DNA of 64,000 bases from Takakia lepidozioides (Eukaryota > Plantae > Bryophyta), in assembly GCA_030704615.1 (NCBI GenBank), contig CM060733.1, positions 6,510,001-6,574,000 on the forward strand, read 5' to 3'. The notes under the pieces are model-generated. The model had not been told where the DNA came from. It saw only the letters and a program-made list of their open reading frames with translations, and did not search any database. Below are positions 2,860-52,848 of this stretch, piece by piece. A program made the translations under genes and the position numbers. Within the stretch, counting starts at the first letter, position 1. The number at the start of each line of letters is the position of its first letter.

Positions 2860-4622
2860 CCAAGGGATGGAACGCGATGATTGCAAGATATGCAGGGGCG
2901 TGGGATGGAGGTGTGAGCAAATGATGCAGGAAGGAGGAGAGGAGGAGGAGATGAGACGAGGAGAAGCTCGCAACATCTTGCGAGCTTGCCGTTCTTGGGA
3001 GAGTTAGCTTGGTCATAGCAGACCGTGTTTCATCTCTGCCTACTCAGCTACACGTGGTGGTTTCGATCTCACAGACCAATCCGACATTACCTGACTACAG
3101 ACACAAGCATCACACAAGAGGTCCTTTTGGTTGATGGTCGGTCAAGTCATGACACAACCTCAAGGACAATGTGGTGAGGGCATCTCTTCTTTGACCTATT
3201 TCAACCTGTTTTGCCTCTCACATCATGTTTGTGTGCATTGCAATGCTTGTGCAAGCCTGGCAACCCTTGAGAAGGGTAAAGAGGTGCATGGGGATATCAT
3301 CAAAGCTGGAATTGTACCTAATGTCATTCTAAACACTGCCCTGGCAGCTCGAAAAGGGGAAGGAGGTCCGTGGTGACATCTTCAGAGCTGGATTGGAATT
3401 ACCAAATGTCATTTTGAACAATACCCTAGTGGACATGTATGCAAAATGTGGGTGCATCGGGGATGCAAAGGGAGTGTCAACACTATGGCTGAACGAGATG
3501 TGGTGTCGTGGAGTGCGATGCTTGCAGGGTATGCACAACATGGACGTGGGATGGAGGCTTTGGAGACCTATGAGCAAATGATGGGGGAAGGGTCAGCCCG
3601 GCCACATCATGTTTGTATGCATTGCAGCCCTGGCAGCCCTGGAGAAGGGCAAAGAGGTGCATGGGAATATCATCAAAGCTAGAATTGTACCTAATGTCAT
3701 TCCATACACTACCCTGGCAGTTCCATGGTGACACCTTCAGAGCTGGAATTGTACCAAATGTCATTTTGAACAATACCCTGGTGGACATGTATGCAAAATG
3801 TGGGTGCATCGAGGACTATGGCTGAACGAGATGTGGTGTCGTGGAGTGCGATGCTTGCAGGGTATGCAAAGCAGGGACATGGATGGAGGCTTTGGCGACC
3901 TATGGCAAATGATGGGGGGAAGGGGTTCAGCCCGGCCACATCATGTTTGTATGCATTGCAGGCCTGGCAGCCGTGGAGAAGGGCAAAGCGGTGCATGGGG
4001 ATATCATCAAAGCTGGAATTGTACTGCCCTAGTAGCTCTGGAAAAAAGGAAGGAGGTCCATGGTGACACCTTCAGAGCTGGAATTGTACCAAATGTCATT
4101 ATGAACAATACCCTAGTGGACATGTATGCAAAATGTGGGGCATCGGGGATGCAAAGGGAGTGTTCAACACTATGGCTAAACGAGATGTGGTGTCGTGGAG
4201 TGCGATGCTTACAGGGTATGCACAGTAGGGACGTGGGATGGAGGCTTTGGAGACCTATGAGCAAATGATGGGGAAGGGGTCCAGCCCAGCCAAATCATCT
4301 TGTATGCATTGTAGGCCTGGCAGCCCTGGAGAAGGGTAAAGAGGTGCATGGGGATATCATCAAGCTGGAAAATTGTACCTTATGTCATTCCATACATGCC
4401 CTGGCAGCTCTGGAAAAGGGGAAGAGGTCCGTGGTGACATCTTCAGAGCTGGATTGTACCAAATGTCATTATGAACATAACCCAGTGGACATGTATGCAA
4501 AATGTGGGTGCATCGGGGATGCAAAAGGGAGTGTTCAACACTATGGCTAAACAAGATGTGGTGCGTGGAGGCGATTGCTTACAGGGTATGCACAGTAGGG
4601 ACGTGGGATGGAGGCTTTGGAG
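2860..4622 (+). pseudogene. PLS-class pentatricopeptide repeat (PPR) pseudogene array, left part
   Basis: Repeated PPR motifs NVILNNTLVDMYAKCGCIGDAK / RDVVSWSAMLAGYAQ / ALEKGKEVHGDIIKAGI lie in shifting frames. There are in-frame TAG stops (cag-TAG at ~4226 and ~4596). The array is cut at 4622 by the retroelement. Confidence 0.85.
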
Positions 4623-4686
4623 TGTCAAGTTATTTTACCACTAGTGTGAAACTAGCTAGGAAATAGCTAGCTTTTACATATTGACA
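4623..4686 (+). repeat. 5' terminal LTR-like unit (64 bp, TGTCAA...TTGACA)
   Basis: Has its own 6-bp terminal inverted repeat. It is followed by tt-TGG (PBS-like position) and a hairpin attgacatttggg/cccaagtgtcaat (4680-4710). Confidence 0.6.
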
Positions 4687-5639
4687 TTTGGGATTGGCCC
4701 AAGTGTCAATCCAGGGGTCAAGGCAGATTTAGGCCCTGGAGTGGTTATCTTCACGGCAAGCGCATGAGGCTCATCTTTCTCGAGTTGAGCCTCACCGCGC
4801 CTAGCTATGGCGCCGTAGTGTGGATTCCCCATGGCGTGGGGTGCACTTGGCTTGACTTGTATTTGAGTGATGAGGTTATATATGCATGAGTTTATGCTTC
4901 AGATTTGTGAGCTTGTGCTTGTATTCTTCTTCTTTATCACTCGAGAAAGATGAGCTCGTATCTATGAGTGCTAGATACGAGTTAGTTGTAGCACTTGTGG
5001 TTTTTGCTTGAGATTGAGAGAAACCAAGTTGTTATGCAAGGAGCACCATGGAGCTCTTGGTTGTTAGAAGCGGAGGCGATGTGGGTTACAGGTGGTAGAC
5101 CTTGGCATTCGATCTTCAGCTTCAGAGATGAAAGCACCATGCTGCAGGTAATTCCAGAGCACCTTGATGGTTTCAGATTGTGTACATGCATGAGCAAGCA
5201 CGATTGGGAAGAGGACCAGTCAAGAGCAGGTTATAGTGGCTTTGGTGGCAAAGCTGAGAACTGGACTTGGGAATGCGAGCTTTCATGTGTGAAGGATTGC
5301 AAGACCAAGCGAAAGGGCTGATTTGGCTTGGGGCAAATCAGTGCACTTTGTGGAGTATGGTGAGATGGGTTTCAATCTCGAGCTTCAGCATTGAGAGGGC
5401 TCTTGTCATGGCAAGAGCAGGGCTGGAACAGGAGCTAAGAGGTGCGGCAAGGCCATGGAATGTGCACCTAGGGTTTCAGAGCTTGGAAGAAGAGCCCTTG
5501 CACCACAAGAGAAGTGTCTTGTGGCTGGAAATGTAAGCCTTAGGGTTTCAGGAGCTTGGCAAAGGCTGTGGAGTGCTTAGTCTTGTCTTAGAGAGCATCA
5601 AGGAGCCAAGGAGCCAAGATAGGGGGCTGATATCTCTTG

Positions 5640-5990
5640 TGTGAAGAGGTTGCATGTGTGGAGCATGTATTCAGCTCATTGAAGCTTCCATCTTCAAGCT
5701 TGGAGGGCAAGCAAGGAAGAGGGAAGGGCTGACTTCCCTTATGTGAGGGCAATGTATGTGTGTGGAGCATGCTATCAGCCTGGTGAAGGCTTGCACTTTT
5801 AGGTGTGGGAGTGCAAGAAAGGAAGGAAGGGGCTGGTTTCCCTGTAGGGCATGTAGAGCATGCTTTCAGCCTGCTGAAGCTTGTATTTTCAGGTTTGTGG
5901 GTGCAAGAAATGAAGCAAAGGAGCTGATTCTCTTATGGTGAGAGTGGGGCATGTGTGGAGCATGCCTTCAGCCATTGAGCCTCTGTTTTC
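5640..5990 (+). repeat. ~100-bp degenerate direct repeats (x4) in the retroelement leader
   Basis: gcatgtgtggagcatg...tcagc...gaag(c/g)tt recurs at ~5652, ~5756, ~5848 and ~5948. Confidence 0.6.
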
Positions 5991-6465
5991 AAGCCTTAGA
6001 GAGCTAGAACGGAAGGTCTAGGGCTGGTTTCCACTTGGAGTGAAAGAAAAGCACTTGTAGGGCCTATGTGAGTTGGGGTTTCAACTTCAAGCTTGAAGGG
6101 AGCGCAACTCTTGAAGCAACAGGTGTAGAGGGCTGGAATAGGCTCTAAGATAGATGCTATGGCCAATGAGAGTGCTTGAATGAGTGCTCACAAGGGCTGG
6201 GAACCAGCAGGGCTTGGTTGTTTGCCATTGAGTTTAGTAGCGTGTTTGGGAGGCTAAGTGAGAAAGAAGGCTTGGTTTGTGGCAACCACCTCATGGCTTA
6301 GGGCTACTATGGTGGTGTGTGGGAGCCGAAAGAGCAAGGATACCTTGCTGATTTCCTCACAGCCACCATAGCTCGGTGGAAAGAAGCCTAGAGTCCAAGA
6401 GACACAAACCCTAGCTTGGCGTGGCTAAACCCCTGGAGAAATGGCTAAACTGCCAGAGCGGCCAT

Positions 6466-7830
6466 GTGTGGGGCTGTGACAGGCTGGTGGCAAGCTGTGA
6501 CGGGCTGTGAGGGGCTTGTGTGACAGGTTGTGGCGAGCTGCTGTGACGGGCTGTGACGGGCTGTGACAAGCTGTGGCAAGCTGTGACAGGTGTGCCCTGT
6601 GCCCTGTGGGGCTTGAGGCTGTGACGGGCTGTGCCCAGTGGCCGTGGGGCTGTGACGGGCTGTGACAGGCTGTGTGGCAAGCTGTGACAGGCTGTGATGG
6701 CTGCTGTGATGTGGCTGTGATGGGCTGTGACAGGCTGTGTCAGGCTGTGACAAGCTGTGCCCAGTGCCTTGAGGGGCTGTGACGGGCTGAGGGGCTTTGT
6801 GCAAGCTGTGACGGGCTATGAGGGGCTGTGACAGGCTGTGGCGAGCTGGACCGGCTGTGCCTGTGCCCTGTGGGGTGTGTGACGGGCTTGGGTCGGCTGT
6901 GTGCTGTGGCGAGCTGTGACGGGCTGTGTGAAGGTGCCCAGTGGCTGTGGGGCTGTGACGGGCTGTGATGGGCTGTGACAGGCTGTGCCTGTGGCCTGTG
7001 GGGCTGTGACGGGCTGTGTCAGGAGGCTGTGGCGAGCTGTGACGGGCTGGTGGATGTGAGGGGCTGTGAGGGCTGGCTGTGACAGCTGTGCCCTATGCTG
7101 TGGGGCTGTGACGGGCTGTGCCCAGTGGGCCTTTGGGGCTGTGACGGGCTGTGACAGGCTTTGGCAAGCTGTGAAAGGCGGCTGTGATGGGCTGTGTGTG
7201 ATGGGCTGTGACGGGCTGTGACAGGCGTGTGGCCTGTGGGGGGCTGTGAGGGGATGTGTTGTGTCAGGCTGTGTAGGCTGGGTGCCCAGTGGCCTTTGAG
7301 GCTGCTGTGTGGTGTGGTGGTGTGACGTGGCTGTGTGAGGCCGTGCCTGAGGCCTTTGGGGCTGTGAGGGGCTGTGACAGGCGGCGACTGGGGATTGTGT
7401 GGCTGTTGGGGCTGTTTGTGTGACGGGCTGTGAGGGCGTGTTGGGGTGTGTGGGGGGCTGTGATAGGCCGTGCCTGAGGCCTTTGGGGCTGTGACGGGCT
7501 GTGAAGGGCCGTCGTGCCTGAGGCCTTTGAGGCTGTGACGGGCTGTGAGGGGCTGTGACAGGCCGTGCCTGAGGCATTTGGGGCTGTGACGGGCTGTGAG
7601 GGGCTGTGACAGGCCGTGCCTGAGGCCTTTGAGGCTGTGACGGGCTGTGTGAGGGGCTGTGACATGCGTGCCTGAGGCTTTGGGCTGTGACGGGCTGTGA
7701 CGGGCTGTGCCTGAGGCCTTGAGGAGGGTTGTGTGTGACGGGCTGTGAGGGGCTGTGACAGGCCGTGCCTGAGGCTTTGGGGCTGTGACAGGCTGTGCCC
7801 AGTGGCCTGTGGGACTGTGACGGCTGTGCT
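6466..7830 (+). repeat. 10-bp minisatellite (GGGCTGTGAC)n with variants, ~1.35 kb, in the retroelement 5' region
   Basis: Directly visible tandem gggctgtgac/aggctgtgac/gggctgtgag, with higher-order ~60-bp units near 7450-7800. Confidence 0.95.
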
Positions 7831-8501
7831 GACTCGTGGAGGCACTGGTGGACTGCCTAAGGACTAGCATGTGGTCTGGAAGGCCGAATTTTGAAGCTCG
7901 TGGAGGGCGGTTTGAGGAGTATCTTCATGATATTCCCATGGTCATGCAAGTGAGGGTAGAGAGGAGAGGCAGAGTGTTGGGATGAGAGCATGCTGGGGTT
8001 AGGCATTGCTTTAGCTTCTCTTCCTCGTAGTTTCCACCCTCTCATTAGGCCAAGACCTTTCCGTAGGTGGAGGCAAGAGTCAGTCCGGGTTTGGGCTGGG
8101 GTGTCCTTGCAGGAGCAACACCGTGGAGTTGTTTTTGGTGTGGGGGAGTTGTCGATCTGATTTCTTGTGTTTGGATCCCCTCCATACCTGCATGCTTGAC
8201 TGTGCGCCATGCTAGTTTTGTGTGGGCGCTTGTTTTTATAAGTGATTGGTCCGGATTTGATCACCGGCCAGTCCTAGAGCATGCTGTCGATGGTGAGGCT
8301 GGGGTGATGACCAGCCAGACCATCATTGTTTCTCCTGTGGTGAGGTTGGAGGTGATGACCAGCCAACCATAGGAGTGCTTGCGGTGGATGCAGGTACAGG
8401 TGTAGGCTATGTTAGGAACTTAGTATTCCAAACCATAACCCGCAACAGGTTCTCTACCCGGTTACCTTGTGAAGAGGGGTTAGGGACATGTTCATGACCG
8501 G

Positions 8502-10000
8502 TTGAGTGTCAACACGGAGGTGCCACTAGTTGCTGGGGACAGCGCCGGTTCGAGCACTAGCGATACTAGTGGGTACACGAGACGAGGTGTGCGGTTTAGG
8601 CCACCTTCACCTCCTGTGTCTTCTACGGAAGGTTCTGATTCGGATTGTGAATCGGGAGGACTCATACCGGCGGTGCAAGTTGTTTCTTTGCCATTGTTGT
8701 GGGACACAATGGAGGAGATGTATGGAGCTACCAAGGGGCCACGAAGATACTCTGGGGCGGTGGGCACCATCGAGTTGGATGATTTTATCCAAGAGTTTGA
8801 TAGTTGGTGTGATTTGCAGCAAATGCGCAATCCACAACTATTTACGCCTTTCATGGCATGGAAGGGGCTGTTTCAGCACCTTGAGGGGCCGCCTATGGAT
8901 GATTACCATGAGTTCAGGCGGGGGCATGAGGTTGAGATCGAGGAGTGGAGGATGTACTGGTCACCCGACTATGTCTCCATCACTAGGGGCACTAGAGCCA
9001 CGAGGGCAGTGGCTACACCTGCCGCTGCACCGGCAGCTTCAGCAAGCAGCAGTGGGACTGGTGGTACAGTAGCTACGACGTCCACCCAAGCCACTACCGC
9101 ACCAGCACTAGCACCCGTGCCTGCCTTCAACCCTGTTGTGGAGTTCTTCAAAGAGTTGAGAGGGAACTACCAAGGGGTGAGGACAGAGAAGTTGCGGAGC
9201 TTGCAAGAGTTCCAACGAAGCCGACCGAGAGCTTGAGGGAGGCTTTCACTCGCATGAGGCGCTTGATAAATGTAACCCAACGGGTTACGGAAGCTCAGGC
9301 AGTCCAATTCTGGTATGGGATATTGGACAAGGAGCTGAGGAGAAGGGTGCGGGATGCAACTCTCCTACAAGCGGCCCAACCCACCTTAGCAAATGTGTTT
9401 TTGCTGGCAGAGCGGATAGAGCTCAACATGGTGGAGGAACGAGTGGTCATGGTGGGATTTGCTAAGGAGACACCACGGGGTAGTGGTGCTCCTAGCCAAC
9501 CACTACCTCAACGTGCTCAAGGCAACAAGGGGGCTCAGGTGAAGCTCAGGGAAGGGCAGAGAGGACCTCAGATGCAGGGGTCTCTCCTTCATTTGCTGGC
9601 CAACAACGGGCGGATGTGGTGTGCTGGACATGTGGAGGACCCCATGTCAAGAAGGATTGTCCAGAGGGAGGCAAAGGGCCGGCACATGCACAGCCTGCAC
9701 AGTTACAGTGTGGGCATTGTGGCAAACACGGGCATGGAGAGGCTCAGTGTTATGGTTTGCATCCTGAGTTGCGCCCAGGCCAGTTCCAAGGGAACAATGG
9801 TGGCCGGGGGCGAGGTGGAGCAGCCCAGAGGGGACGAGGTGGCCAGCCACGAGGCCAAGGGCAAGCTCAACGTGGCCAAGGACGCGGAGGTCAGGGTGTT
9901 GACCAAGGCATGGCCAACCGGCTTCAGCAGCTAGAGCAGAGGCTCGCTGCCATGGCTACCGCTCAGGTGGTACCGGCTCTAAGGCCGGATGGTCCACCTC
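8502..10000 (+). pseudogene. Gag-like region (frameshifted) with two zinc knuckles
   Basis: ORFs 8502-9236, 9233-9934 and 9616-. Capsid-like RRYSG...LDDFIQEFDSW. Knuckles CWTCGGPHVKKDC and CGHCGKHGHGEAQC, then an RGG/Q-rich nucleocapsid tail. Confidence 0.75.
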
Positions 10001-10689
10001 CTGCTCCTGAGGGAGGAGATATGGGAGGCATGGGATTCATGTGTGGAGCAACACTACCACTAGTGCAGGTGGAGTCTGCTGCAGCCGTGACTCGAGGAGC
10101 AGCACGAGTTCCTGAGCCACGAGGTGCAGAGGTGGAGTTGGATCCACAACGTGGGGAGGCAAGCCGTCAGGCTAGGCTTCCTCAGTCATTCACATTGGCG
10201 GAGACAGTGTTGACGCCATCCATGGCACCTAGTTCTCGCCCGACTGTTACCGAGGCGGAGCTTACTATGCCATTGGGGAGAGCTACACGGGTGGCACCAC
10301 TACCTAGTGTTGCCAAGGCTACGGCAGCTAGTGTGCTGCTAGGAGCGGCCACATCTGTGTGCCAGGCTCCATTGTTCTCGGCTACCATGATTGCGACGCC
10401 GGGGGTAAGACCAGCTGAGGTGTTCAGGCTGGCAGCTACACTCTGTGAGAGTGGGGAGGTTACTTCATCTTCTGCGGAGATAGTAGGAGGTGTAGTGCCG
10501 GAGGGATCCTCGGATTTGAGGGTTAAGACTGCCACGGCGGCGCCATGGCAAGCTGCAGCTGCCAGGTTGATGGAGCTGCCAGCTAGGCCAGCCATTGAGC
10601 GCGCCATGGTGACACCTGGAGTTGTCATGTTAGACAACCAGGATGGCATTTTCTGTTTGAGTGGACCGGCAGGCAAGAGGTACCGGCCA

Positions 10690-11000
10690 CTGCGGGTCTT
10701 GTTGGACTCGGGGAGCTCAGCCATTGATGCTGGGCAGAGCTGCTATTGCAGGCTTGGGCCTCACGGAGGCGGATATGGAGCCTTGTCCTTTCCAGATACA
10801 GACGTCTTGGGAGGATTGGAGCAGGCTCGGGGCATGACACGGCGTGAGTTGGCTATCAGACTACGGCCGGATCACCCTACAGATGGCTCAGTGATGCGAG
10901 CCAAGGCCATTGTGACAGACGCAGTCTCATACGATGTCCTGGTTGGTGGGGCAGTGTTGTACCCCATGGGCTTCACCCTGGATTTTTGGGAGGAATCAGC
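10690..11000 (+). pseudogene. Retroviral-type aspartic protease domain
   Basis: RVLLDSG(A) catalytic motif at ~10693-10715 and a YDVLVG motif at ~10928. Frameshifts lie between them. Confidence 0.8.
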
Positions 11001-11412
11001 TTCCTATAGGCCTGCATGGCAGTCAGGGGAGGGCCGGCGTGTGCAGCTCCCTGTGACGTTCATAGGAGGAGTTGCGGTTGCCCAGCGAGGCAAGATGCCG
11101 ACACTAGCAGCATTCACAACGGCAGTGAGTTGGCCTAGAGAGTTGCTTGAGGGCAATGCTCATTCAGAGGATGTACCACCTCCGGGAGAGCAGGATGACA
11201 TGTATGGTATGGCGGAGTTGCCTACCATGGTTGCTCAGACTCCATTGTGGGGCACGAGCAAGGATTTGCAGCGGGATGCTGATCGACGGGTGCAACAAGC
11301 CTGGGTGGAGGCTTTTGTACCGTCAGGAGAGGAGGAGAGTGTGGGGATTGCACCAGGACCACCTCAATTGTCTCCATTGGACACCACACCTATTGTGTGG
11401 CAGTATCCGGAT

Positions 11413-12375
11413 GAAGGCATTTGTCTTCTGGACTTGTTTGGCGGGATCAGCACCGGATTGGCTGCTGTGTTACAACAGGTGTACGAGTTCGGCGTTACCT
11501 GTATGTGGAGAGGGATGAGACTGCACGACGCGTTTCACTTCGCCATGTTGCTCAGTTGGTGCAGCGGTACCCTGAGTTGTTGTCGGTATCTGCAATTCGT
11601 GGATATCAGCAGGCCTTGCCAGCAGACATTTCGTTGCTGGGGGCGCAGGATTTGGAGCGGGTTGGCTCCATTGATCTGGTAGTGGCAGGTTGGCCCTGCC
11701 AAGGGCATTCATCAGCCGGGCATGGCAATGGATTGCGAGACTCGAGGTCGGGTCTGTTTTGGGAGATGGTGCGGGTTTTGCGCCACTTGCAGCTTCATCA
11801 AGCTGTATCTCCAGCATACATCTTGGAGAATGTGCCACTGATGGGCGATTCTCGGGCCAGGGTGATGGCCAGTGTGCATCAAGTCCAGTCGTGGCTTGGG
11901 TCAGCAGTGTTGCTAGATGCAGCTACAGTGGGGTCACGAGCTCATCGTCCACGGCTATGGTGGACTAACTTGATGCCACCCGCACTGCTCAAGCGTGCAT
12001 TTGATGGGGTGCAGCGGCCAGCACATCTCACAGTGGATAACATTTTGGACACAGGGAGGCAGTCTCAGCGTGTGAGACACGATGACCGTTCGCCTTTGGC
12101 AGTGGTCAACAAGGTGGGTCAACCACGGCAGCATTACCTACACTGCTCAGCTTCCCAGGATCGCATGCTTTTCGGGATGGTGGACCTGGCCTCCTGTGGG
12201 ATGCTCAGTTGCAGCAGTTAGTGGAGCCTAATGCTGACGAGCGTGAGCGGGCTATGGGTTTTCCACTGGACCACGGCGGTGCCTTCTCTTTCTGAGGCAT
12301 CACGTCGTCAGGTGTTGGGGCAAGCAATGGATCTCAATTGCTTGACCTGGATTGTCAGCTTGGCTATGGCTGAGC
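11413..12375 (+). pseudogene. DNMT3-like C5-cytosine DNA methyltransferase domain inside pol
   Basis: Motif I LDLFGGISTG, II YVERD, IV DLVVAGWPCQG (catalytic PC ~11694), GLRDSRSGLFWE, VI ILENVP (11826), VIII SRAHRPRLWWTNL, IX EPNADERERAMGF (~12223) and X RQVLGQAM (~12303). Three 1-nt frameshifts. Confidence 0.9.
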
Positions 12376-12816
12376 AACGTAGAGTGCGGAGTACACTTCC
12401 CTGATGGTCTCTCTGCCTACCGAGACGGTACAGGCAGTGAGTGGGGGCGAGCGGTGAGGACCACGAGGGTAGACATCCATGGCACACGTGGGAGGTGCTC
12501 GAGGTTCAGAGGGAGTTGGCAGCCAAGGCGGCTGTGATGGATGAGGTTGGGGATTCTTCTCGGGTTGAGGAGGTCCTCAATGATGAGATGATGGGCAGGA
12601 TGAGGCCTTGTCATTGACTGAGCAGGCAGGGAGTACTGCTCAAGAGGTTGCAGCATAGCAACCACGGACGCGTCCTCTACCTCTAAGCCCACTGGACTTA
12701 AGGTTGCAGTTACGGAGGACAATTGGGAGCCTGACATTGGACCCATTGTCACCGGAGGAGAGAGACGACGTATACGGCGGTTCCTGAGGGCTTACAGGAA
12801 TTGCTTTGCCTTCAGT

Positions 12817-14150
12817 TTGAAGGACTTGGGAGCACTGAAGGGTCAAGAGATCCGTATTGAGTTGGCCACTGACACGCCAATCTTTCGGAGACCCTATAGA
12901 TACAGTGACATGGAGAGGTCTTTGATTCAGATGAGGACTCAAGATCTCTGGGAGGCAGGTTTGGTGGAGCTCTCTGGTGGAGAGTATGCTTCAGCCACAG
13001 TGATGCCAGCCAAGAAGGATGTCTATGGCAATTGGACGGAGAGACGTATGTGCGGTGATTACCGGCCTGTAAATCGTCAGACCAAGTCCGATAAGTATGC
13101 CATGCCAACACCAGAGGAGATCTTTGATGCCATCGGGCATTCAAGGTCTTTAGCACTTTGGATTTACGATCCGGATATCACCAGTTGCCAATCAAGGAGG
13201 CGGACAAGCAAAAGACGGCATTCTGGGGGATCAATGAGCACGGCAAGGATTGCCTATACCAGTGGCGGTTCTTACCATTTGGGCTTAAGAATGCTCCTGC
13301 AGAGTTTCAGAGAGTCATGGATAGGATTCTAGCAGGGGTGGACTTTGCTCGGTGCTACATAGATGACATCATCATCTTTAGTGTTACGATGGAGGAGCAT
13401 GAGAGACACCTTCAGGTGGTATTGGAGCGCTTGAGAGCGCACGGATTGAAGTTGCATCCGGGGAAGTGCAAGTTTTTCCACAACCAGATTGAGTATCTGG
13501 GTCACATGATATATCCTGGAGGATTGGGGGTACAGCAACTAAGGTAGAGGCCATTGCACAAATTCCACGCCCCACGGATGTGAGCCGAGTTCGAGCTTTC
13601 ATGGGGTTGGCAAACTATTATAGACGGTTTGTCAAGGGATTTAGTACCATTGCAAAGGCTCTAACCAAGCTGACCAAGGTGGACCAGGAGTGGCAGTGGG
13701 AAGATGAGCAGGAACGAGCTTTTCAAGAGCTCAAGGCGAGGTTGACCTCGGCGCCTATCTTGAGACGACCTATCAGGGGGCGTCCCTTTCAGCTGCATAC
13801 GGATTGGAGCATGCTGGGGCTTGGAGCGGTGTCACACAGGTGGATGATGAGGGAAGAGAGTTCGTAGTGGCTTACGCTAGCCGCTCGAACAACGCTGCAG
13901 AGGCTAAGTACAGCTCATATGAGGGAGAGTGCTTAGCTGCAGTGTGGGCCGTGGCACACTTCAGGTGCTATCTATACGGCAATCTTTTCACCCTTGTCAC
14001 GGATCACCAGCCACTCAAGTGGTTGATGGAGTCAGACAAGCTTACGGGGAAGCTTGCACGGTGGGCACTTATACTCCAGGAGTATGACTTTCAGGTTGTG
14101 CATCGACCGGGTTTGGTCAATCGGGATGCGGATGGATTGAGTCGCAATCC
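12817..14150 (+). pseudogene. Reverse transcriptase and RNase H (gypsy type)
   Basis: RT: RMCGDYRPVN, DLRSGYHQ, LPFGLKNAPAEFQ, YIDDIII, LHPGKC, YLGH. RH: LHTDWS, YEGECLAAVWAV, TDHQPLKWL, DADGLSR. Several frameshifts. Confidence 0.95.
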
Positions 14151-14453
14151 ATGCATGAGCCAGCAGGATGACACTGGAGCTCGGTGGCATGGTGAGACGG
14201 ACGAGGAGATGGTGCCGGGATGGCACGCATCTGCATTTTTGTGTATCTTGGCATGGGGAGGTCAGATTGGACCTACAACAGGGATGACTGTAGACGGAGT
14301 GTCTGAGGACCCTGAGGCTAGTGATGAGCTAGGTGGTGCCAGAGATATACATGAGGATTCGGCTGTGTTGGACTACCTCCGCACGGGAGACACGGCAGCC
14401 ATTGTGACTGCCAGGGAGAGGGATCGGATCCTGCAACGAGCCAAGAGGTTCAA

Positions 14454-15787
14454 GTGGGAGGGGATACACCTACTTCGAGTGTGGGAAATGGTCGGGTGAG
14501 GATTGTGCCTCACCCCACACAGCGTGCACGGTTAGTGCGGCATGCCCATGAGGAGTTGGGGCATTTTGGAGTGCGACGCACTCACAGTTTACTGCAGGGG
14601 CAGTATTGGTGGCGTGGTATGCATACAGAGGTGCAACAGTTCGTGGCTAGGTGCATGGTGTGTGACAGGGTGCGTGCTTCATTCAACGCCCCTACACCAC
14701 AGTTGCATCCTTTACCAATCATGGGATTGGGCTACAGGTGGAGTCTTGACTTCGCAGGACCGTTGCCACTGACTATGCGCCACCACAGATATGTGTTGGT
14801 GATGGTGGAGCACTTCTCCAAGTGGATTGAGTTGGTTCCATTGCCTGACAAGGCTAGTGAGGGGGCTGCGTATGCATTCTTGGATCGTGTGCTTAGCCGA
14901 TTTGGTGCTCCAGCTGAGGTACTCACGGACCAAGGGAGAGAGTTTTTGGGGAGTTTCAGGCTTTGTGTGATAAAGCCTTGATAGACCACCGCACCACTTC
15001 TCGGGATCATCCTGAGGCCGATGGCTTAGCAGAGAGAGTTGTTCAGACGGTGAAGAGGGGTTGCGCAAGTATGGCTTGCAGAAGGGACACCTAGGAGATT
15101 GGGATCTTCAGGTTCCTTGGTTAGCCATGGGCTACAGGTTCAGCAAACAAGCATCACTTGCCTCCTTCTCACCATATTTCCTTCTCTTTGGCCGGGAGCC
15201 GGATTTGCCTGCAGCCATTCGTAGGGACACTGCTCAAGTCCTTAACCTTGACGATCCGGACGTGTGGGTACATGCATGTGATCAGCGTGCAGAGTTGTTC
15301 AAGAAAGTCATGCCCATGGCTTTTGAGAACCTTGCCATTGCACAGCACCGTGATACGTTGAGGTATGCCACTATACGTGGTGGAGGATATCGTCCTGGGG
15401 TTCGGAGGTTTAGCCCTGGTGACTATGTTTATTTGCAGCAGACTGCTCCTACGACTCTGGATGTTACTGCAGGGCGTGTTATTCTGAGGGTTCGAGAGGT
15501 GTTGCCCTCAGGGGTCCTGATCTTGGAGGGTCGGGATGGCATGACTTGGAAGGACCATATGCGTAATTGTGCGCCATGTCACCTTCCCAATGTCGATGGC
15601 AGAGTTGACCCAAACTTGGCAGTGGTACCTACAGGTTTGAGGTGCATGCTTTGTGGGTCTGCCAAAGGGGCAGCCACCATGCTGGTGTGTGATCGATGCT
15701 CAAGGGGTTGGCATATGGGATGCTTGATACCACCTCTTGAGAAGGTTCCTGACGGAGATTGGTTTGTGTCCACACTGCTTGGGATAG
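14454..15787 (+). pseudogene. DDE integrase with HHCC zinc finger and C-terminal PHD finger
   Basis: HAHEELGHFG...CMVC, WSLDFAGP, LTDQG, ADGLAERVV, SPYFLLFGR. PHD at 15643-15778: CMLC...MLVCDRCSRGWHMGCLIPPLEKVPDGDW. Removing one T at ~15763 gives LCPHC-LG-stop. Confidence 0.9.
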
Positions 15788-16036
15788 TGGCAGTGGACAT
15801 GACTGGAGGCAGCTAACAAGACATGGGAGGCCAAGCTCATAGGAGTCAATACATGAGATCCCAAGCTCAAGTTCACAGGTTGCAAGACGGCGACTAATGA
15901 TGGGGCAACTCTTGCACCCGGCCTCTTGATCTATCGAGTTTGAGTGTAGTAGGGATAATGGTGGAGGACTTAGTGAGGCTATGGTCACTATTACATCTTG
16001 TGGCTACCTGGACTTAGAGGGACCTAAGCACCAGCT

Positions 16037-16235
16037 AGGGGGGCGATTGTGTGGACTAGTGACTGCCATAGTGGGCAGCATAATGGCAGCCTAGTGACTG
16101 ACTAGTTGTAGCCTAGTGGTTGGACTAGTGGCTGGACTAGTGGTGGACTAGTAGTATACTAGTGTGTGGTGTGCACATGTGTTGTGTGGTTTTGGACAGC
16201 GATGTAGTTGTGTAGCGATATGTATGCGCACGACA
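16037..16235 (+). repeat. Polypurine tract (16037-16043) and 3' terminal LTR-like unit (16048-16235)
   Basis: agggggg-cgat is followed by TGTGTG...CACGACA (188 bp). Internal GGACTAGTGG repeats. No extended similarity to 4623-4686. Confidence 0.65.
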
Positions 16236-18540
16236 GGAGAACTATGAGCAAATGATGGGGGAAGGGGTCCAGCCCAGCCACATCATGTTTGTATGCATTG
16301 TGGGCCTGGCAGCCCTGGAGAAGGGTAAAGAGGTGCATGGGGATATCATCAAAGCTGGAATTGTACCTTATGTCATTCCATACACTGCCCTGGCAGCTCT
16401 GGAAAAGGGGAAGGAGGTCTGTGGTGACATCTTCAGAGCTGGAATTGTACCAAATGTCATTATGAACAATACCCTAGTGGACATGTATGCAAATGTGGGT
16501 GCATCGGGGATGCAAGGGAGTGTTCAACCTATGGCTAAACGAGATGTGGTGTCGTGGTGCGATGCTTGCAGGGTATGCACAACAGAGACGTGGGATGGAG
16601 GCTTTGGAGACCTATGAGCAAATGATGGGGGAAGGGGTTCAGCCCGGCCACATCATGTTTGTATGCATTGCAGGCCTGGCAGCCCTGGAGAAGGGTAAAG
16701 AGGTGCATGGGGATATCATCAAAGCTGGAATTGTACCTTATGTCATTCGAAACACTGCCCTGGCAACTCTGGAAAAGGGGAAGGAGGTCCATGGTGACAC
16801 CTTCAGAGCTGGAATTGTACCAATGTCATTTTGAACAATACCCTAGTGGACATGTAGGCAAAAGTGGGTGCATCAAGATGCAAAGGGAGTGTTCAACACT
16901 ATAGCTGAACGAGATGTGGTGTCGTGGAGTGCGATGCTTGCAGGGTATGCACAACAGGGACGTGGGATGGAGGCTTTGGAGACCTATGAGCAAATGATGG
17001 GGAAGGGGTTCAGCCCGGCCACATCATGTTTGTATGCATTGCAGGCCTGGCAGCCCTGGAGAAGGGTAAAGAGGTGCATGGGGATATCATCAAAGCTGGA
17101 ATTGTACCTAATGTCATTCGAAACACTGCCCTGGCATCTCTGGAAAAGGGAAGGAGGTCCATGGTGACACCTTCAGAGCTGGAAATGTACCAAATGTCAT
17201 TTTGAACAACACCCTAGTGGACATGTAGGCAAAATGTGGGTGCATCGAGGATGCAAAGGGAGTGTTCAACACTATGGCTGAACGAGATGTGGTGTCGTGG
17301 AGTGCGATGCTTGCAGGGTATGCACAACAGGGACGTGGGATGGAGGCTTTGGAGACCTATGAGCAAATGATGGGGGAAGGGTTCAGCCCGGCCACATCAT
17401 GTTTGTGTGCATTGCAGGCCTGGCAGCCCTGATTTAAATCAGACACCTCAACCATACCACAGCTTCTAAAAGAGGATCAAGAGAGGGAGTCCATAATGCC
17501 TCTTCTTGCTCTTCTGGGCATGTGAAGATGCTTTGTGAGGCAGGCAGAGTGAAAGAGGCTCTACAACCTTTAAACCAAGGAGCATTTCAGTCACATTATC
17601 CAAAGTGGATTCACACCAAGTGTTTTTCTCCTCAACCCCCTTGTGAACATGTATGTTAAGTGCAGGAGCATCATGAATGCACACCGATGTGTTCAACGGA
17701 ATGCCTCAACAAACTTTGATCACGTTGAATATAATGTTGGCAGGATTTAACATGGTGTGGTAGGAATGCTTTGGAGACCTATGAGCAACTGCTGCGCGAA
17801 AGGGGTGAAGCCAACCACATCACATTTGTTTGTAATGCATGTGCAAGCCTGGGAGCTCTGGAAAAGGGCAAAGAGGTCCATGGTGACATTGTCAAATCTG
17901 GAATTGTACCCAATGTTGTTCTGAACACTGCCCTGGTGGACTACATGTATGCCAAATGTGGTGCATCTTGTGAGGGCAGCAGATTGAAAGAGCTCTAACC
18001 TTTAACCAGTGAGCATTCAGCGTCACATATCCAAAGTGGATTCACAACCAAGTGTTTTTTTACTTTCCTCCTCAACCCCCTGTGAACATGTATGTTAAGT
18101 GCAGGAGCATCATGAATGCACACCGAGTGTTCAACGGAATGCCTCAACAAACTTTGATCACGTTGAATATAATGTTGGCAGGATTTAACATGGGTGTGGT
18201 AGGAATGCTTTGGAGACCTATGAGCAACTGCCGCGCGAAGGTGAAGCCCAACCACATCACATTTGTTTGTAATGCATGTGCAAGCCTGGGAGCTCTGGAA
18301 AAGGGCAAAGAGGTCCATGGTGACATTGTCAAATCTGGAATTGTACCCAATGTTGTTCTGAACACTGCCCTGGTGGACTACATGTATGCCAAATGTGGGT
18401 GCATCGAGGATGCAAAAGAAGTGTTTGACAGTATGGCTGAACGAGATGTGGTGTCGTGGAGTGCGATGATTGCAAGATATGCACAACAAGGGCGCGGATG
18501 GAGGCTTTGGAGACCTATGAGCAATGATGCGGGAAGGGGT
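16236..18540 (+). pseudogene. PLS-class PPR pseudogene array, right part (three ~372-bp units plus two further duplicated gene starts)
   Basis: Unit starts at 16236, 16606, 16978 and 17351. Shared ATG-TAG stop at 16855 and 17226. N-terminal 'LCEAGRVKEAL'-type starts at ~17530 and ~17968. No E/DYW domain seen. Confidence 0.85.
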
Positions 18541-18563
18541 GATTCCCCGTGGAAAAATAGCTC

Positions 18564-19282
18564 CAAGAAACCTGCATGGGTAGATGGTCAACTGGAAGCC
18601 GCAGCAGCAGCGGCACAATTGATAAAATCAAGCAATGCTAATCAAGGCACCTTCTTCAACCCATTTCACTCTGTTTTCCCCTCTTATCAGAATCGCCCTA
18701 AATTTTCATGTTTTAAGAATTCTGCAAGTTAGCTGGTTGAGTGAACCTTTGATAGTTTGGAGTGACTTTGACATGATACTGCCAAAGTGACAATAGGAAA
18801 GTATCCAGAAATAGGTAACAGAGAGGAGAAGCTGTGGAATGAATACTTTTTTGACCCCAGTCAATGTTGGGACAACCGTCTTGGAAGGTAAATGCCTTTG
18901 GATTACAGAGTGGTAGATGCAATTGAGAATAGGAACTGGTGTGATAAGTTGAGTTGGGTGTTTGCTGGAACAAATCTAGGCTGCCATTTGTCAGCTGTTA
19001 ACAGCAATGCAAGGATGTAAGCATGATCTGTCCATATTACTTATGATTCCCTGTGGAGGGTTAGCTACAAGAAACCTGCATGGGTAGATGGTACATAGTT
19101 TGGAGTGATTTTGACATGATATTGCCAAAGTGACAATAGGAAAGTATCCAGAAACATGTAACAAAGATGAGAAGAAGTTGTGGAATGAATGCTATTCTGA
19201 CCGCAGTCAAGGGTGGGACAACCAACGGAAAAAGGTGAATGTCTATTAGATTACAGAGAGTAGGAGACGCAACTCAGCATAG
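18564..19282 (+). repeat. Local direct duplication
   Basis: aagaaacctgcatgggtagatggt at ~18566 and ~19069. The block atagtttggagtga...gattacagag...atag at ~18752-18931 is repeated at ~19096-19282. Confidence 0.7.
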
Positions 19283-23174: not shown

Positions 23175-26100
23175 TCATGCTACCCATGTGTTGTATCCCG
23201 CTGCAAAAGAGTATCGACCTCGTTGAAACTCATAGTGGCCTGGTGAATGTTTGGGATCGCAAACCATCCTCCTCAAAAATATGAAATACAAATGTTTGCA
23301 GGGTATGAATTTACCTCTCTTGCCCAAACTGGTTGATAGCATATTCACAAAATCAGGACATGTGCAATTGGGGAAATTGGAAACCGTGATGTCGTAGGTC
23401 CTGTCATGAACAGCAGATGTGGAAGTGATGATTGTGAATACCCGACCATATCCTGGATCGGGTACTTCCGTGGTGCTTCCGACACGAGCTTGGAGCATTC
23501 TTGCGGACTCCACTTTGCCAAAGTGTTCAGCGGTTGGAGGGAAACGCCGAACGAGCTTTCCATCTCGTTTGGTTGGCCACAAGTCAGGATTTGCCGGGGG
23601 GACCCGGGAGGACGCAGAAGTAGTAGCACATGCATGGAGTTGGGGTTGTCTCGCAAGGGAAAAACCTGCCTCCTCCAGCATTTCAATCTCCTGAAAGCTG
23701 AGATGTGTTCCCACCTTCACGGGCCAAACGGTTGGAGGAGATGGCTTCATCACTACGGAAGGACGCACAGTTCCATGCACACATCTGGCACAATCATCTG
23801 CGCAGAACCAGAACTTGTGGTTCTTGGCTTCTGGTTGACCGTATGGACGCATCAAGCCCGTGAAAGTCGGAGCAGGAGTTCGGGCACCACCTCTGGATAT
23901 AGATGAAGTGCACTTCTCGAAATTAGTTGCCCTGATCGCTGTACATTTCACACGAGACCCGACACTTGTGCGTTCTATGTGCCAAACGTGGTCGGGGCAT
24001 GCGGACTCAAGCACATCAAGGGGGTTGTTTCTCTCCTGCACCATTTCAGTGGCACGGTTTGATGCTGGAGCTTGCCGTCGTGTTGGAGGTTCCTCCACAA
24101 TGGAGGTTCCGGACATGGAGCTGTCATGCAGGGGAACACGAGGCTTCGAGAAGTTATCACGGTCTGCCCTGTGGGAATCTGAATCCGAACCAGGTGGAGT
24201 GTTCAATTTCCTCTTACAGGAGCCGAATCTCTCCTCCCCTTCAAGATGTGGAACTCTAGAAACAAGTGGCGTTCCCTGGGCATACATGCTCACCGCCCGT
24301 GCTATCTTGATTGGATCCCCAGATCTGTTTGCAGCACGCAACATCAACTCCCATTTGTCCGGACCCTTGCCACCAACCCCACCTCGTAAGAAATCACGGT
24401 ATCGGGTTTGTTGTTGCAAGGCACGTATCAAATCATCTGTTGTTGCCACATACAAATCCCGACCTCGTTTCCCAGACTGCTGCAACCATGCATTGTGCAC
24501 AGTTTCTGCCAAATTGCAAGATGGCATGTCCGCCATTTCCTCAATGGACATGTTCTGCAAAGAGGATAACCACACTTCAGAACAGTGCACAGGAAACAAC
24601 ATAAAGAAAGCAATGAGTCAAAAATATGGAAAGCAAATGTATGAATAAAGCATGAAATAGAAGCCTCGTACCATTGTCATGGCTGCTCCCCACTGTCTAT
24701 ACCGGAAGTGCCAAAACGCCAGCCAATCTTCCAATGCTCTCATACTCTCAAGTGATGCAGCTCCAGAAGAGAACCACCAGGCACGAATTGTCTGGAACAA
24801 AGTGTCCGCCTCCTTCATTGTTCTAGCATCTTTGTACTCTTTGCACAATTTACGGTGCTGAGTCTGCATCTCTGGTTTGATGTCCGACTTTGTATGTTTT
24901 TCCAGAGATTGTGTCCAATGGAATAGACATGTACGCTCTCTTCCTGGCATAGGCACTTTTGGGTCGCCCGATCCGAAGACAATACGAATAGCATTGAAAT
25001 TTGCTTGAGCACTATCCGCCATGAAACCTGCGAAATTTGGAGATGGCAGCCCATGGCAGCCCATGACACGTATCAGGGAATTCCACATGAGCTTCTGGGA
25101 TTCCGTATCCTCGGATTGCATGTCACAAACTGCAATTGTCATAACTCGTTGGTACACTGGATCGTAGACATGACAAGCCATTGTCGTCCAATCCTTCACT
25201 CGTTTCACATGATCAAACATAAGAAAACAGTTCTGCAAGTCCCCAGTCTTCTGCATCCGCTTCACGAGGCTAACCCCACTGCCCTCCCCAACAGTCGACA
25301 TTTTGAAAAAAAAAACTTTGATGGCACCTTGACCTGGGAATACATTGTCCTGGATGTAATCGTACTTGCTCACTCGTTTCAATTCCAAAATATTGTCTAT
25401 GTATGATCCCAGAGCCCATCAATGATGCCGGATGTTAGGTGAACTTAAAGTGGAGAAATGATCCATGACCAGGTCCAATGCTGCACCGTCAAGTTTAGTC
25501 CCCACAGAATCTCCTTCACTCAAAATATGGCTTTCCAAGAAGGACTTGCTTGCGCCAAGAGCAATTGCAGATGTTGTTGCGGATGGGTTTCTCCCGAACT
25601 CCTATTTGATCAACCTCGATACTGTCTCAACACTCTCCCTGTAATCCCCCTTCGAGACAGGATGGTTATGGAATCCAAAATGCACACAAGCTCTCGTCAT
25701 TGTATTCAAACGGTGGACAACATAGTACATTCTTGCTCCGCAGAGCGTCAAACAGGATGACACAAGTTTGCAGAATTTGCAGACGAAAGTGTTTGCCGGT
25801 GGAGGGGCAGTCCCAGGCTGAAATGGATTTTCCGCCAGACCCTCCCATTCGCTTTGATTATGAACCCCAGACTGAAGAAAGTGTCTGCAATTCAAATTAT
25901 CACACCTAAGGTGTCCATTGCAAACTGTCCTCCTGAAAACAAGCTTGTCATCATTCTGAATATTGGATGTTTTTGTTCTGCACCACGGGTGCCCGTCGTG
26001 TTTCTTGTCCATTCCATGCATCATGATTGTTACACCTCCAACTCGCGGAGGAGGAGGCAGCTCGAATAGGATATCGCCATCAAAAGTCTCCGACAAGAAC

Positions 26101-26665
26101 TTCACAGGCACCTGCTTCAAAGATTCCCAATCAATTCCCGCAACTCACTTTTGAATCCAGCCATTCCTCCCATCGCCCGCAATTTTGGAATGACACTACA
26201 AATCTCTTCTTCATCAGCTTCTGCAACCACAGTAGGAAGGACTGGATTTGGAATTTCACTTATGTCATCATCGGAAGAATCCGAAAGCTCAACGATTGGA
26301 GTGGAGGAAGTCTGTTCTTTTTTCACCACCACCTCCCTCTTGTCTTCAACGACCGAAGCAGCAGTCCCGGGCGTCACATATGACCCAAGGGACTTTGGCC
26401 GAGGCTCTCCAAGTACTCTGTATCGACCAGGACGCACTCTCCACTGGCTGATATGAGCCGTCTCATCACGGTTTTGGAAAGAATATTTCACCAACTTCCC
26501 TTTCAGATCGTAAACCTCTTTCTCCAAAAAGATGGAGCCATTCTGCAGCTGAAAACGGGTAGCCAAGACATGTTCCAGAACAATTGCAAATCCATTGTCA
26601 AGGACTTCCTGGGAGAACGGCACTGGTTTGTCGTCTGAGAAGAACTCCGCTTCAGAGGAAGCCAT
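23175..26665 (-). pseudogene. MULE-family DDE transposase with N-terminal WRKY/GCM-like Zn domain and C-terminal SWIM finger
   Basis: CDNLNC...CKFC...CGARMYY...ACVHFGFHNHP; FDHVKRV (D1), FMADSAQA (D2), TCLFHW (CxxH), NLAETVH (E); SWIM CTCPDF...PCKHL. Intron at ~24557-24672. Frameshifts near 26120 and 25400-25600. Confidence 0.8.
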
Positions 26666-27514
26666 CTTCCTTCCTCGAGTATGTTTGTACCTTGCTATCG
26701 CAGATCTAGTGTAAATCGGTTTACTGCTGTCTCCAGAACACAGTTGAAGAATGAGCAGAGAATATGCCGGAGGAAGCTCAGATAACGACTGTGCATATTA
26801 TGTTATTCTTTCCAGATATGCAGCCGTCCATTTTAATTACTTTTCTTGTGGGCCCAGTGGTCAGAGTATCCCTAGGGGCAGTGTCGGCAACTGTTAAACC
26901 GTTAATCAGAACCTCATCAATAAACCCAATAACAAAGCCGACTTCCTGGAAGCATGCCACAGGATCTGAGAATGGGATTGCAGATTAAGTAAATGTATCT
27001 ATATACTACTACCAATGATCATGCGCACCTAGAAAGTTCCAAATGTGAAACGAATGTGGGGTTTGGCTAACAAGGATGACCGTGTATGATATTCCAAAAT
27101 TTGTCATCAAACTCTCGTTCATTTATATTTATTTGTTTAAGACTGCGCATCAATTTCTGGGATTCGCTGTTCTTTTTAAATATTGAACCCGTTCTAATAA
27201 AGAACACGCCGTTTTTTTGGGCGGCACACGTCAGACATCCATAACTGAATACGAACAGCTGTACACCAATTGCTGGCATGTGCACTAATAAGGAAACGAC
27301 TATGTGTAACGGTCACGCGGGAGGGAATCCGATGCTTCTAGAGACACGCAAGAACGCAGGCAATCCCGCAAGAAATCGGGAGTCACTGCGTTTTTCTACT
27401 TTTCGCGCTTAGAGGGAGAGTGGTAGTCAAGCTGGAGAGGGTTCTTTCTAGAATACGAAAGAGAAGAAAATTTATTTTACTTCCCTTAGAGAGAGACGCA
27501 GAGCAAGAGAGAAA

Positions 27515-38900: not shown

Positions 38901-39247
38901 AAACGTCAAAATGACTGAGGATGGTGCACATATAATACTGGACAGAAATGTGTTGGCTCTGGGCGCTTTTCGCGAACCAGGTTCCACTTAAGAATGGACA
39001 TTCACCCAAAACTGAGTGGGGTAGTCTTCCAAAGTCTCCTCTCCCAGGACAAAGTCACCAACTCTATCCCAAGGTATGCAGGCCTTTTCACTCGCACACC
39101 CATAAACCCATATTGCGTCTCACTCTTCCAATGGAGATCCTTCCTGTTGAAGGGTCCTGGTTTTGCTGTTTGCAAACATTGTCGAAGAGGCCGTATAAGC
39201 GGATTTTCCGTGATCAGTATATCATCGAGTTTTGCTTCCACGTCCAT
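35906..39247 (-). pseudogene. MULE-family DDE transposase with WRKY-like Zn domain and SWIM finger (outer element)
   Basis: KRGCQCCF...EHTD; CDTTFGTN (D1), LMVFDEWLNGIPIAYI, FIVDDAEAE (D2), LCLWHV (CxxH), DTNASIEAYH (E); SWIM CTCPWAMKGNLCKH. Introns including 37039-37630, plus frameshifts. Confidence 0.82.
37060..37625. repeat. 10/11-bp tandem repeat (GCGGACT(T)GCC) filling a transposase intron
   Basis: Visible run of (g/t)ggact(t)gcc(a/g) units. Related gcggactggc units lie at 39460-39605, upstream of the same transposase. Confidence 0.9.
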
Positions 39248-43620: not shown

Positions 43621-44925
<1,305 letters not shown>

Positions 44926-52800: not shown

Positions 52801-52848
52801 TGCAAGCATTGGATTCTCTCTCTTTCTCCCCCATTGCAGGGCCTTCAT
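46875..52848 (-). CDS. HYOU1: ER-lumen Hsp110/GRP170 (HYOU1; Arabidopsis HSP70-17-like), multi-exon, C-terminal KDEL
   Basis: Signal peptide then SVDLGSEWLK, INEMSKRKSP, FYDMGAN, LIGGATRVP, HLDADEAVALGA, AEAKNSLEAYIY and EDWLYTDGED; ends FKDEL-stop. Confidence 0.95.

Follow-up and report, generated by a model that had tools for sequence, protein, structure and literature searches.

Several retroelements are known to carry cytosine methyltransferases, among them SymbioDIRS-Dnmt3 and SymbioLINE-Dnmt of Symbiodinium and the EpiLTRs of Cymbomonas and Euglena (PMC5890265; bioRxiv 10.64898/2026.05.21.726589). The closest described system is KnitGypsy-Dnmt3 of Klebsormidium nitens (de Mendoza et al. 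2018, PMC5890265), for which the text of that paper gives an unrearranged, intronless Dnmt3-like domain within a Gypsy coding region, with the key residues kept and under purifying selection, and a figure legend gives DIRS-like repeats (A-coding-B-A-B). The same features were found in the family of a Ty3/gypsy copy located in a window of 64,000 nucleotides of the Takakia lepidozioides genome (contig CM060733.1, positions 6,510,001 to 6,574,000; "window" denotes this whole stretch, to which all coordinates refer, on the forward strand unless marked). The element occupies positions 4623-16235, is flanked by a 4-bp target site duplication (TSD) and has the order gag-protease (PR)-methyltransferase (MTase)-reverse transcriptase (RT)-RNase H (RH)-integrase (INT)-PHD finger. 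Judged by its sequence it belongs to the KnitGypsy-Dnmt3 lineage, a kind of element that has already been published. New here are the range of the lineage, which includes land plants and chlorophytes, the position of the MTase on the Gag side of a leaky-type stop, the PHD-bearing integrase and a self-primed, split-repeat anatomy.

The Symbiodinium elements and the EpiLTRs, as these two sources present them, differ in being of the tyrosine recombinase or LINE class, or in having a DNMT that is sister to DNMT4 and accompanied by DAM and a chromodomain. Neither the window element nor its scanned relatives gave a match to DAM, a chromodomain or a tyrosine recombinase; unlike DIRS, PAT and Ngaro the element has an rve integrase and a TSD, and a PHD finger is present after the integrase. 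While the text of PMC5890265 framed the capture as confined to the K. nitens lineage, the lineage described here is present in a land plant, in liverworts (Marchantia, Calypogeia), and in Sphagnum, Closterium and Scenedesmus. It also differs from KnitGypsy-Dnmt3 as described there in that the MTase ends gag-PR ahead of a conserved leaky-type stop and in its very high copy number. The PHD finger, self-priming, 4-bp TSD and palindromic junction of the window family go unmentioned for KnitGypsy-Dnmt3 in the text of that paper, and its three text supplements held no match for KnitGypsy or Marchantia. Later papers cite streptophyte Gypsy-DNMT3 elements in the portions seen (bioRxiv 10.64898/2026.05.21.726589, PMC12344493). 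The preliminary description of this stretch had knowledge of no well-described land-plant example; indeed no printed land-plant description was found in a search that left most subscription journals, theses and Repbase outside it, and the supplements of later papers might list some, but the lineage turned out to be green-plant-wide and is no novelty of land plants.

The DNMT3-like C5 cytosine MTase (11413-12383) is the C-terminal domain of the first open reading frame (ORF1). It is intronless and matches Pfam PF00145 (E=1.7e-13, Pfam search of the window), and motifs I, II, IV, VI, VIII, IX and X run along it in canonical, unrearranged order. The wording comprises LFGGISTG (11434-11457), YLYVERD (motif II, 11496), DLVVAGWPCQ (motif IV, 11673-11702), SGLFWE (11748), ILENVP (motif VI, 11820), AHRPRLWWTNL (motif VIII, 11940), ERERAMGF (12239) and LGQAMDLNC (12315). 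The catalytic Cys (11697) and Glu (11826) and the Arg residues of motif VIII (11946 and 11952) are all intact in the window. Across the family, the Cys was found in 103 of 105 element MTase domains (the other two being gaps), the Glu in all 105, and the two Args in 103 and 104. When a profile built from 17 family sequences was compared with the Protein Data Bank, human DNMT3A (E=2e-23) ranked above DRM (4e-14) and above DNMT2 and HhaI (about 1e-8 to 1e-7), and a Foldseek search with the predicted structure of a relative (P0011) gave DNMT3A/B as top matches. By these comparisons the element MTase is DNMT3-like: DNMT3A/B is closer to it than DRM, DNMT1, DNMT2 and the bacterial enzymes are. The DNMT3-style motifs, the intact catalytic residues, the DNMT3-like identity and the placement between PR (LLDSG at 10699) and RT (from 12712) had all been proposed in the preliminary description and are borne out. 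The label "DNMT" which our own profile gave to proteins P0326 and P0309 is probably spurious.

Host PpDNMT3b (Yaari et al. 2019, PMC6453930) is likewise of DNMT3 type with canonical motif order, and de novo CG and CHH activity has been shown for it. According to the same source, as far as seen, the DNMT3s of non-flowering hosts carry a C-terminal DUF3444. The element proteins do not: DUF3444 was absent from all 20 that were scanned and from the pieces of the window.

The MTase is a regular part of this family. The longer-protein search gave 76 matches, of which 61 were strong and element-like; the organism was named in 22 (17 Marchantia, two Calypogeia, two Sphagnum and one Klebsormidium). A representative protein library contributed 480 clusters at E<=1e-10, and among the 20 of these that were looked up Closterium (two), Klebsormidium (one) and Scenedesmus (one) were named. 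From metagenomes, 80 of 246 relatives were kept as loci. Gag/PR upstream or RT downstream of the MTase was found in 73 of the 80, another order in none, and the remaining seven were short or cut; the locus search starts from the MTase, and copies without one are not findable by it. As an independent check, contigs from three of four sequencing runs spanned PR, MTase and RT evenly and without gaps. The family is high-copy and very abundant in the host of the window, summed contig depth not being equivalent to copy number.

In an unfiltered codon comparison of the window MTase with peat copies L003, L004 and L019, dN was 0.18-0.19 and dS 2.0-2.5. The pN/pS of the MTase against the same copies was 0.22-0.23 (confidence interval 0.17-0.29), compared with 0.19-0.23 for RT and 0.38-0.41 for PR; against L028 and L063 it was 0.27 and 0.46. 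Within the peat family omega was 0.46-0.62 for the MTase and 0.33-0.54 for RT; decay after insertion inflates these identity-filtered values, and the main test is the unfiltered comparison, by which the MTase is under purifying selection and as constrained as RT. The near-saturated dS argues against recent horizontal transfer between the host of the window and peat moss. The RT of Marchantia P0004 is 87-88% identical to that of peat L003 and L004, these being closer to one another than to the window element.

Two architectures were distinguished: PR-MTase-RT in streptophytes and RT-RH-MTase-INT-PHD in Scenedesmus and other sources. Unlike in the window, the MTase of the Scenedesmus elements lies between RNase H and integrase. 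An RT-RH tree (113 rows) placed the 35 rows with the MTase after RH on one side of a branch with support 97, and in an MTase tree (120 rows) each architecture group needs one change, with support 77-83. Both were built with FastTree only and gave long-branch warnings, cluster duplicates and partial domains being excluded; the MTase tree comprised element domains and 15 weak prokaryote-like fragments, and no host DNMT3. The MTase tree puts K. nitens proteins (KFL_009030040 and KFL_013780020/10) among the elements with the MTase before RT, and the RT-RH tree has them in the same set, with deep nodes at 80-90, so that the proposed link to the Klebsormidium elements holds. Between the two trees the distances are in agreement, with a Mantel rho of 0.71 for 45 elements (0 of 999 permutations). 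The simplest reading would be that the domain was captured once, long ago, and later moved, with two captures as the alternative. A low-sensitivity search revealed no giant-virus or phage donor. One of 21 pattern matches in viral contigs was a weak, 32% match to a phage-type enzyme, and the 15 weak prokaryote-like matches lie outside the element clade.

Because a conserved in-frame stop (TAG CAA CCA, 12656-12664) separates it from RT-RH-INT-PHD, the MTase is the end of the gag-PR frame, ORF1, and not a plain pol domain. In the family it does share the frame of RT, as had been supposed, but a single uninterrupted ORF does not hold; MTase and RT are fused in protein P0046 and in loci of the L066 type, and split in K. 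nitens KFL_013780020/10. Thirty-four of 48 MTase-to-RT linkers are in frame, the other 14 being shifted by decay. A stop followed by Gln and then Pro or Leu occurs at one position in all 25 in-frame linkers from the nearer subfamilies of the window, and L063 has a double stop at that position. A DNA-level pattern matched 47 of 72 loci and the window, and all 48 have a stop (35 TAG, 13 TAA); the pattern did not require a stop, but did require Gln or a stop next, so the linker count is the unbiased one. The 25 loci missed by the pattern comprise seven cut loci, ten of a fused family, L063 and seven that are decayed or divergent. After stops due to decay, CARYY follows in 13 of 696 cases only. 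The linker is fixed at 549 nt in peat copies, the Marchantia and Calypogeia ORF1 proteins P0002, P0005 and P0008 terminate 98-100 aa past motif X, and 59 of 67 RT-nearest new proteins start within 227 aa of RT (some being cut by contig ends).

CAR-YYA after UAG is the readthrough signal of tobacco mosaic virus (TMV) type, which works in plants and also with UAA (PMC2754532), and about 20 Gag per Pol are needed by retroelements (PMC2194720), as these sources state in the parts seen. The contexts TAG CAA CCA of the window and L028 and TAG CAA CTA of L072 and L073 fit such a type I signal, UAG then CAR-YYA in frame, and would be consistent with readthrough. Gag-PR-MTase is thus predicted to be the abundant product, and the MTase is likely made at Gag level. 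In the parts of these papers seen, in-frame stops set protein ratios in TMV replicase (CAR-YYA), SIRE1, murine leukemia virus (MuLV) and Tca2 (PMC2754532, PMC2194720), as proposed here, and the Ogre elements, like the window family, include the protease in ORF1 of a split between gag-pro and pol, across which Ogre uses splicing (PMC6317226). Unlike in the readthrough elements and Ogre, the stop of the window family follows an added enzyme, with the methyltransferase on the abundant side. No report of readthrough in Gypsy-Dnmt3 elements was found in the literature searched.

A second distant sublineage (L066-L080, Calypogeia P0289 and P0046) has MTase and RT fused without a stop and coexists with the others in the same metagenomes; its RT groups with a liverwort protein. 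Several sublineages therefore seem older than the bryophyte split. ORF1/ORF2 pairs on contigs of equal size were also noted (P0049/P0290, P0146/P0288, P0032/P0267 and P0084/P0296; adjacent locus tags in K. nitens), which suggests that algal elements are split likewise. ORF1 stops right after motif X in P0049 and P0146, perhaps reflecting another recoding route.

The ends of the insertion lie at 4623 (TGTC) and 16235 (GACA) within a PPR repeat, with GGAG duplicated (4619-4622, in a PPR repeat unit, and 16236-16239). DDE integrase, TSD and polypurine tract (PPT), as in a canonical long terminal repeat (LTR) element, are present, but two identical TG...CA LTRs are absent: no ordinary LTR pair and no repeat common to the two ends of the window element was found. 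The left end is repeat A (4623-4938) and the right end, after the PPT, repeat B (16046-16235), so that the window copy is of a short A-ORFs-B form shared by other related loci. Eight loci (L003, which is cut, L007, L036, L045, L055, L067, L070 and L079) have the long form A1-ORFs-PPT-B1-(2 nt)-A2-B2. A 4-bp TSD was found in the window and, of seven loci examined at both ends, in six. The B1|A2 junction of the peat family reads GACA-GC-TGTC or GACA-AT-TGTC, both palindromes, and in two distant copies the spacer is AC. From the layout of these loci it was predicted that the window family joins B to A, and this was then confirmed: the B end is followed by a 2-nt spacer and the sequence at 4623 in three of four runs (23, 4 and 1 contigs; the three studies concerned may include the source of the window). 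In two of four runs the end of A is followed by the start of B. An A|B junction as sloppy as from end-joining was considered and has been weakened, three of four peat junctions being flush or nearly so and one having about 20 extra bases.

Directly after repeat A lies a primer-binding site of 17 nt (4939-4955), a perfect complement of the self-primer at 4769-4785; the random maximum in 2,000 draws was 8 nt. A complement of 10-17 nt was found at the same place in 11 of 17 loci, elsewhere in two and in none of the remaining four, and the letters of the self-primer differ among three families. We infer Tf1-type self-priming, which, like the split repeats, is missing from the preliminary description. 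Reverse transcription would then treat B+A as the LTR, with the integrase site lying inside it, and a circular intermediate cut at the palindromic B|A junction likely explains the layout by analogy; short forms may arise later by B1-B2 recombination. Rearranged copies were also observed (L042/L043, L026, L010/L017): L042 has inverted partial A repeats, the MTase-RT linker of L026 is enlarged by an insertion of 825 nt, and L010 and L017 have B in inverted orientation upstream of gag.

Parts of this anatomy have precedents. The A-ORFs-B-A-B layout resembles the split direct repeats of PAT/Ngaro type. In the portions of the sources seen, foamy-virus integrase cleaves palindromic 2-LTR junctions, flanked like those of the window family by CA and TG (PMC1180852), Tf1 and Tcn1 share the self-complementary primer site and self-priming (PMC6317226), and Gypsy-7a_cRei of Chlamydomonas carries a PHD accessory domain (PMC9940879). 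Unlike these, the window family joins split repeats, palindromic junction, self-priming and PHD in a DDE-integrase element with 4-bp TSDs. PHD-bearing Gypsy elements were found in the literature seen only for Chlamydomonas (PMC9940879, PMC8557442), nothing on split repeats combined with Gypsy and integrase was found beyond the KnitGypsy-Dnmt3 legend, and Gypsy elements with a methyltransferase or with split repeats go unmentioned in the parts of PMC8226300 and PMC3350952 that were seen.

The window copy itself is interrupted. A break-aware alignment gave 15 one-base breaks in the whole element (13 with a base fewer, two with a base more) and no in-frame premature stop over 1,902 aligned codons; four of the breaks fall in the MTase, at about 11477, 12130, 12264 and 12272. 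At the MTase breaks, the length in contigs from three of four sequencing runs is not that of the window. Fourteen decayed peat copies showed the opposite pattern, with stops (40 in 4,533 codons) but no break, these copies being the top-scoring loci, a choice that selects against breaks. A monodehydroascorbate reductase (MDAR) gene (43621-44925, minus strand) is a single unbroken, intronless frame of 434 aa, with 77% identity to Sphagnum and 75% to Diphasiastrum, values that mark the host as a land plant without seeds. Because the contigs differ there, MDAR is unbroken and the peat copies show the opposite pattern, the breaks are read as mostly long-read errors in a repeat; they look like assembly errors. 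The window copy is presumably young.

Based on these features, the MTase likely methylates the newly made cDNA of the element itself, a reading to which we give a probability of about 0.55. Three points favor it: the MTase lies on the abundant side, it would accompany the proteins of the particle in either architecture, and the text of PMC5890265 reports de novo CG methylation in yeast by the related SymbioDIRS-Dnmt3. Most ribosomes would halt at the TAG, giving Gag-PR-MTase, and a minority would read through and add RT-RH-INT-PHD. The protease would release the MTase inside the particle, where self-primed reverse transcription would produce a B-A-ORFs-B-A cDNA that is end-joined or recombined to a circle. 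The abundant MTase could then methylate the naked cDNA before the integrase cleaves at the internal palindrome (GACA, 2 nt, TGTC) to insert the element, the PHD finger probably steering it to unmethylated H3K4. The likely benefit would be that a new copy arrives pre-marked like host repeat DNA, with less detection and less cost to the host, and the mark would afterwards be maintained by host MET1/CMT.

Several observations weigh against this proposal. KnitGypsy-Dnmt3 gave no DNA methylation in yeast, an assay in which human DNMT3B failed too and which its authors called inconclusive (PMC5890265, as far as seen). No element-specific loss of CpG was found, the observed/expected ratio being 0.48-0.62 in coding parts against 0.54 in window 19000-64000, and the decay of peat copies (CG 0.19 and CHG 0.18 against CHH 0.05) is what host methylation alone would give. 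The Pro before the catalytic Cys is replaced by Glu (PC to EC) in 42 of 105 domains, though not in the window. The structure model of P0011 is of modest quality (pLDDT 63.6). With respect to expression, the main peat subfamily has the stop context TAG CAA CCC ATG, one base off CARYYA and then Met, and TAA replaces TAG in 13 of 48 copies. Eight of the 34 in-frame linkers belong to the distant family without a stop, in which the MTase is fused to RT, and in Klebsormidium P0046 the two are likewise fused with the stop absent, so Gag-level expression is not needed everywhere. Finally, the mirror product A-B-A-ORFs-B, predicted by a simple 2-LTR-circle model, was found at none of 15 distinct left ends. 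As a separate observation, the EC dipeptide occurs in 30 of 57 domains of the RH-MTase-INT clade, with the Cys retained.

An active enzyme might instead act mainly on chromatin at or around the insertion site, travelling with the integrase. A PHD finger (15637-15780; PF00628, E=1.2e-8), which the preliminary description did not report, closes the integrase C-terminus, and its closest solved relatives are the PHDs of CHD4, KDM5B/KDM5A, ATXR5, DPF3 and BAZ2A. PHDs of this relative set read unmodified H3 tails, and an analogy is offered by mammalian DNMT3, whose ADD domain directs it to unmethylated H3K4. The chlorophyte-type clade, moreover, has the MTase directly before INT. In the land-plant elements, however, the stop cuts the MTase off from INT-PHD and would leave it in large excess over the integrase, and we regard a main action on chromatin as unlikely. 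The inactivity of the algal homolog in yeast, the missing CpG scar, the EC dipeptide and a Gag-level expression that would suit a stoichiometric part are also consistent with an MTase kept for a role other than 5-methylcytosine, such as RNA methylation, or nucleic-acid binding or protection as a structural part at the level of Gag. Such a role seems quite unlikely, given that Cys, Glu, Arg and the S-adenosylmethionine-binding motifs are near-invariant among sequences of about 35-40% identity, that the nearest structures are the DNA enzymes DNMT3A/B, far ahead of DNMT2, and that SymbioDIRS-Dnmt3 methylates CG.

How the stop is passed concerns the expression step only and is compatible with either function. 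Ogre-like splicing or reinitiation in place of readthrough would agree with Sphagnum P0055 and Marchantia P0014, gene models that leave out the stop region, and, in the peat subfamily, with an ATG three codons past the stop. These gene models are predictions, though, the stop remains in frame with a fixed linker in peat copies, CAR-YY is retained across subfamilies with near-saturated synonymous sites, and the ATG is missing from the window, L028 and L072; splicing or reinitiation is therefore doubtful, and methylation of cDNA by an enzyme made through readthrough is preferred. As to origin, 15 frame breaks and the lack of an LTR pair in the window copy might suggest that a host DNMT3 was captured only once, that the insert decays neutrally or that the assembly is chimeric. 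Yet the architecture is shared by 73 of 80 loci and by named liverwort, moss and algal proteins, purifying selection was measured, the copy has a TSD and family-type ends, and junctions of the family were present in three of four runs. An origin of this sort is extremely improbable; the one-off capture and neutral evolution named beforehand as possible outcomes were both refuted, and the third such outcome, an MTase out of frame with pol, did not come about either.

The remaining parts of the element were assigned as follows. Gag (8709-10600) has two zinc-knuckle-like motifs (9622-9660 and 9709-9750) and two frame breaks, and is 59-64% identical to the N-terminal part of Marchantia P0008. The aspartic protease extends over 10615-11061; Pfam Asp_protease_2 is matched in its relatives P0032 and P0034. 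RT (12712-13511) has YIDD at 13356 and matches PF00078 (E=4e-32), RNase H (13523-14142) matches PF17917 (E=9e-29), and the DDE integrase with its HHCC zinc finger (14487-15513) matches PF17921 and PF00665. The PPT (16037-16045) lies in a region with 90% identity over 52 nt to that of the peat family. The 5' leader (4956-8700) is unusually long at about 3.7 kb, that of peat copies measuring about 1.2 kb, and contains a 91-nt repeat (5762-5953) and a 1.4-kb satellite with a 10-bp unit of GGCTGTGAC type (6471-7829).

The element is inserted among near-identical, tandemly arrayed PPR repeats with units of about 370 nt and many one-base indels (3219-4622 and 16236-18700), and PPR Pfam matches occur at 18013-18729. 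Further genes on the minus strand of the window are cupin/JmjC-like (41817-42719), of the Hsp70 family (51919-52857) and a kinesin (60003-63144). Two decayed elements with SWIM-like zinc-finger motifs, which we take to be probably Mutator-like DNA transposons, were located at 23175-26800 and 35906-39054 (minus strand), with a weak Pfam SWIM match at 35906-36550.

Why a transposon should carry its own silencing enzyme has been a question since 2018, and the known carriers, dinoflagellates and Klebsormidium, are hard to work with. The question becomes directly testable because the lineage occurs in Marchantia, a genetic model in which methylation mutants exist, and is very abundant in the host of the window. 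The conserved stop predicts the methyltransferase to be a major particle protein. Split repeats together with 4-bp TSDs point to integration through an internal junction, of which no description was found for Ty3/gypsy elements, and programs that search for LTR pairs will miss such elements. Inventories of bryophyte DNMTs include entries derived from elements, 17 Marchantia gene models being among the matches. The full picture of an ancient, green-plant-wide gypsy lineage with an active de novo DNMT3 made at Gag level, integrating via the palindromic junction of a circular, self-methylated intermediate, is tentative and, taken as a whole, rather unlikely. If true, it would mean that a retroelement sets its own epigenetic state prior to insertion, and that algal and bryophyte genomes have had a second, mobile source of DNMT3 which predates the chlorophyte-streptophyte split.

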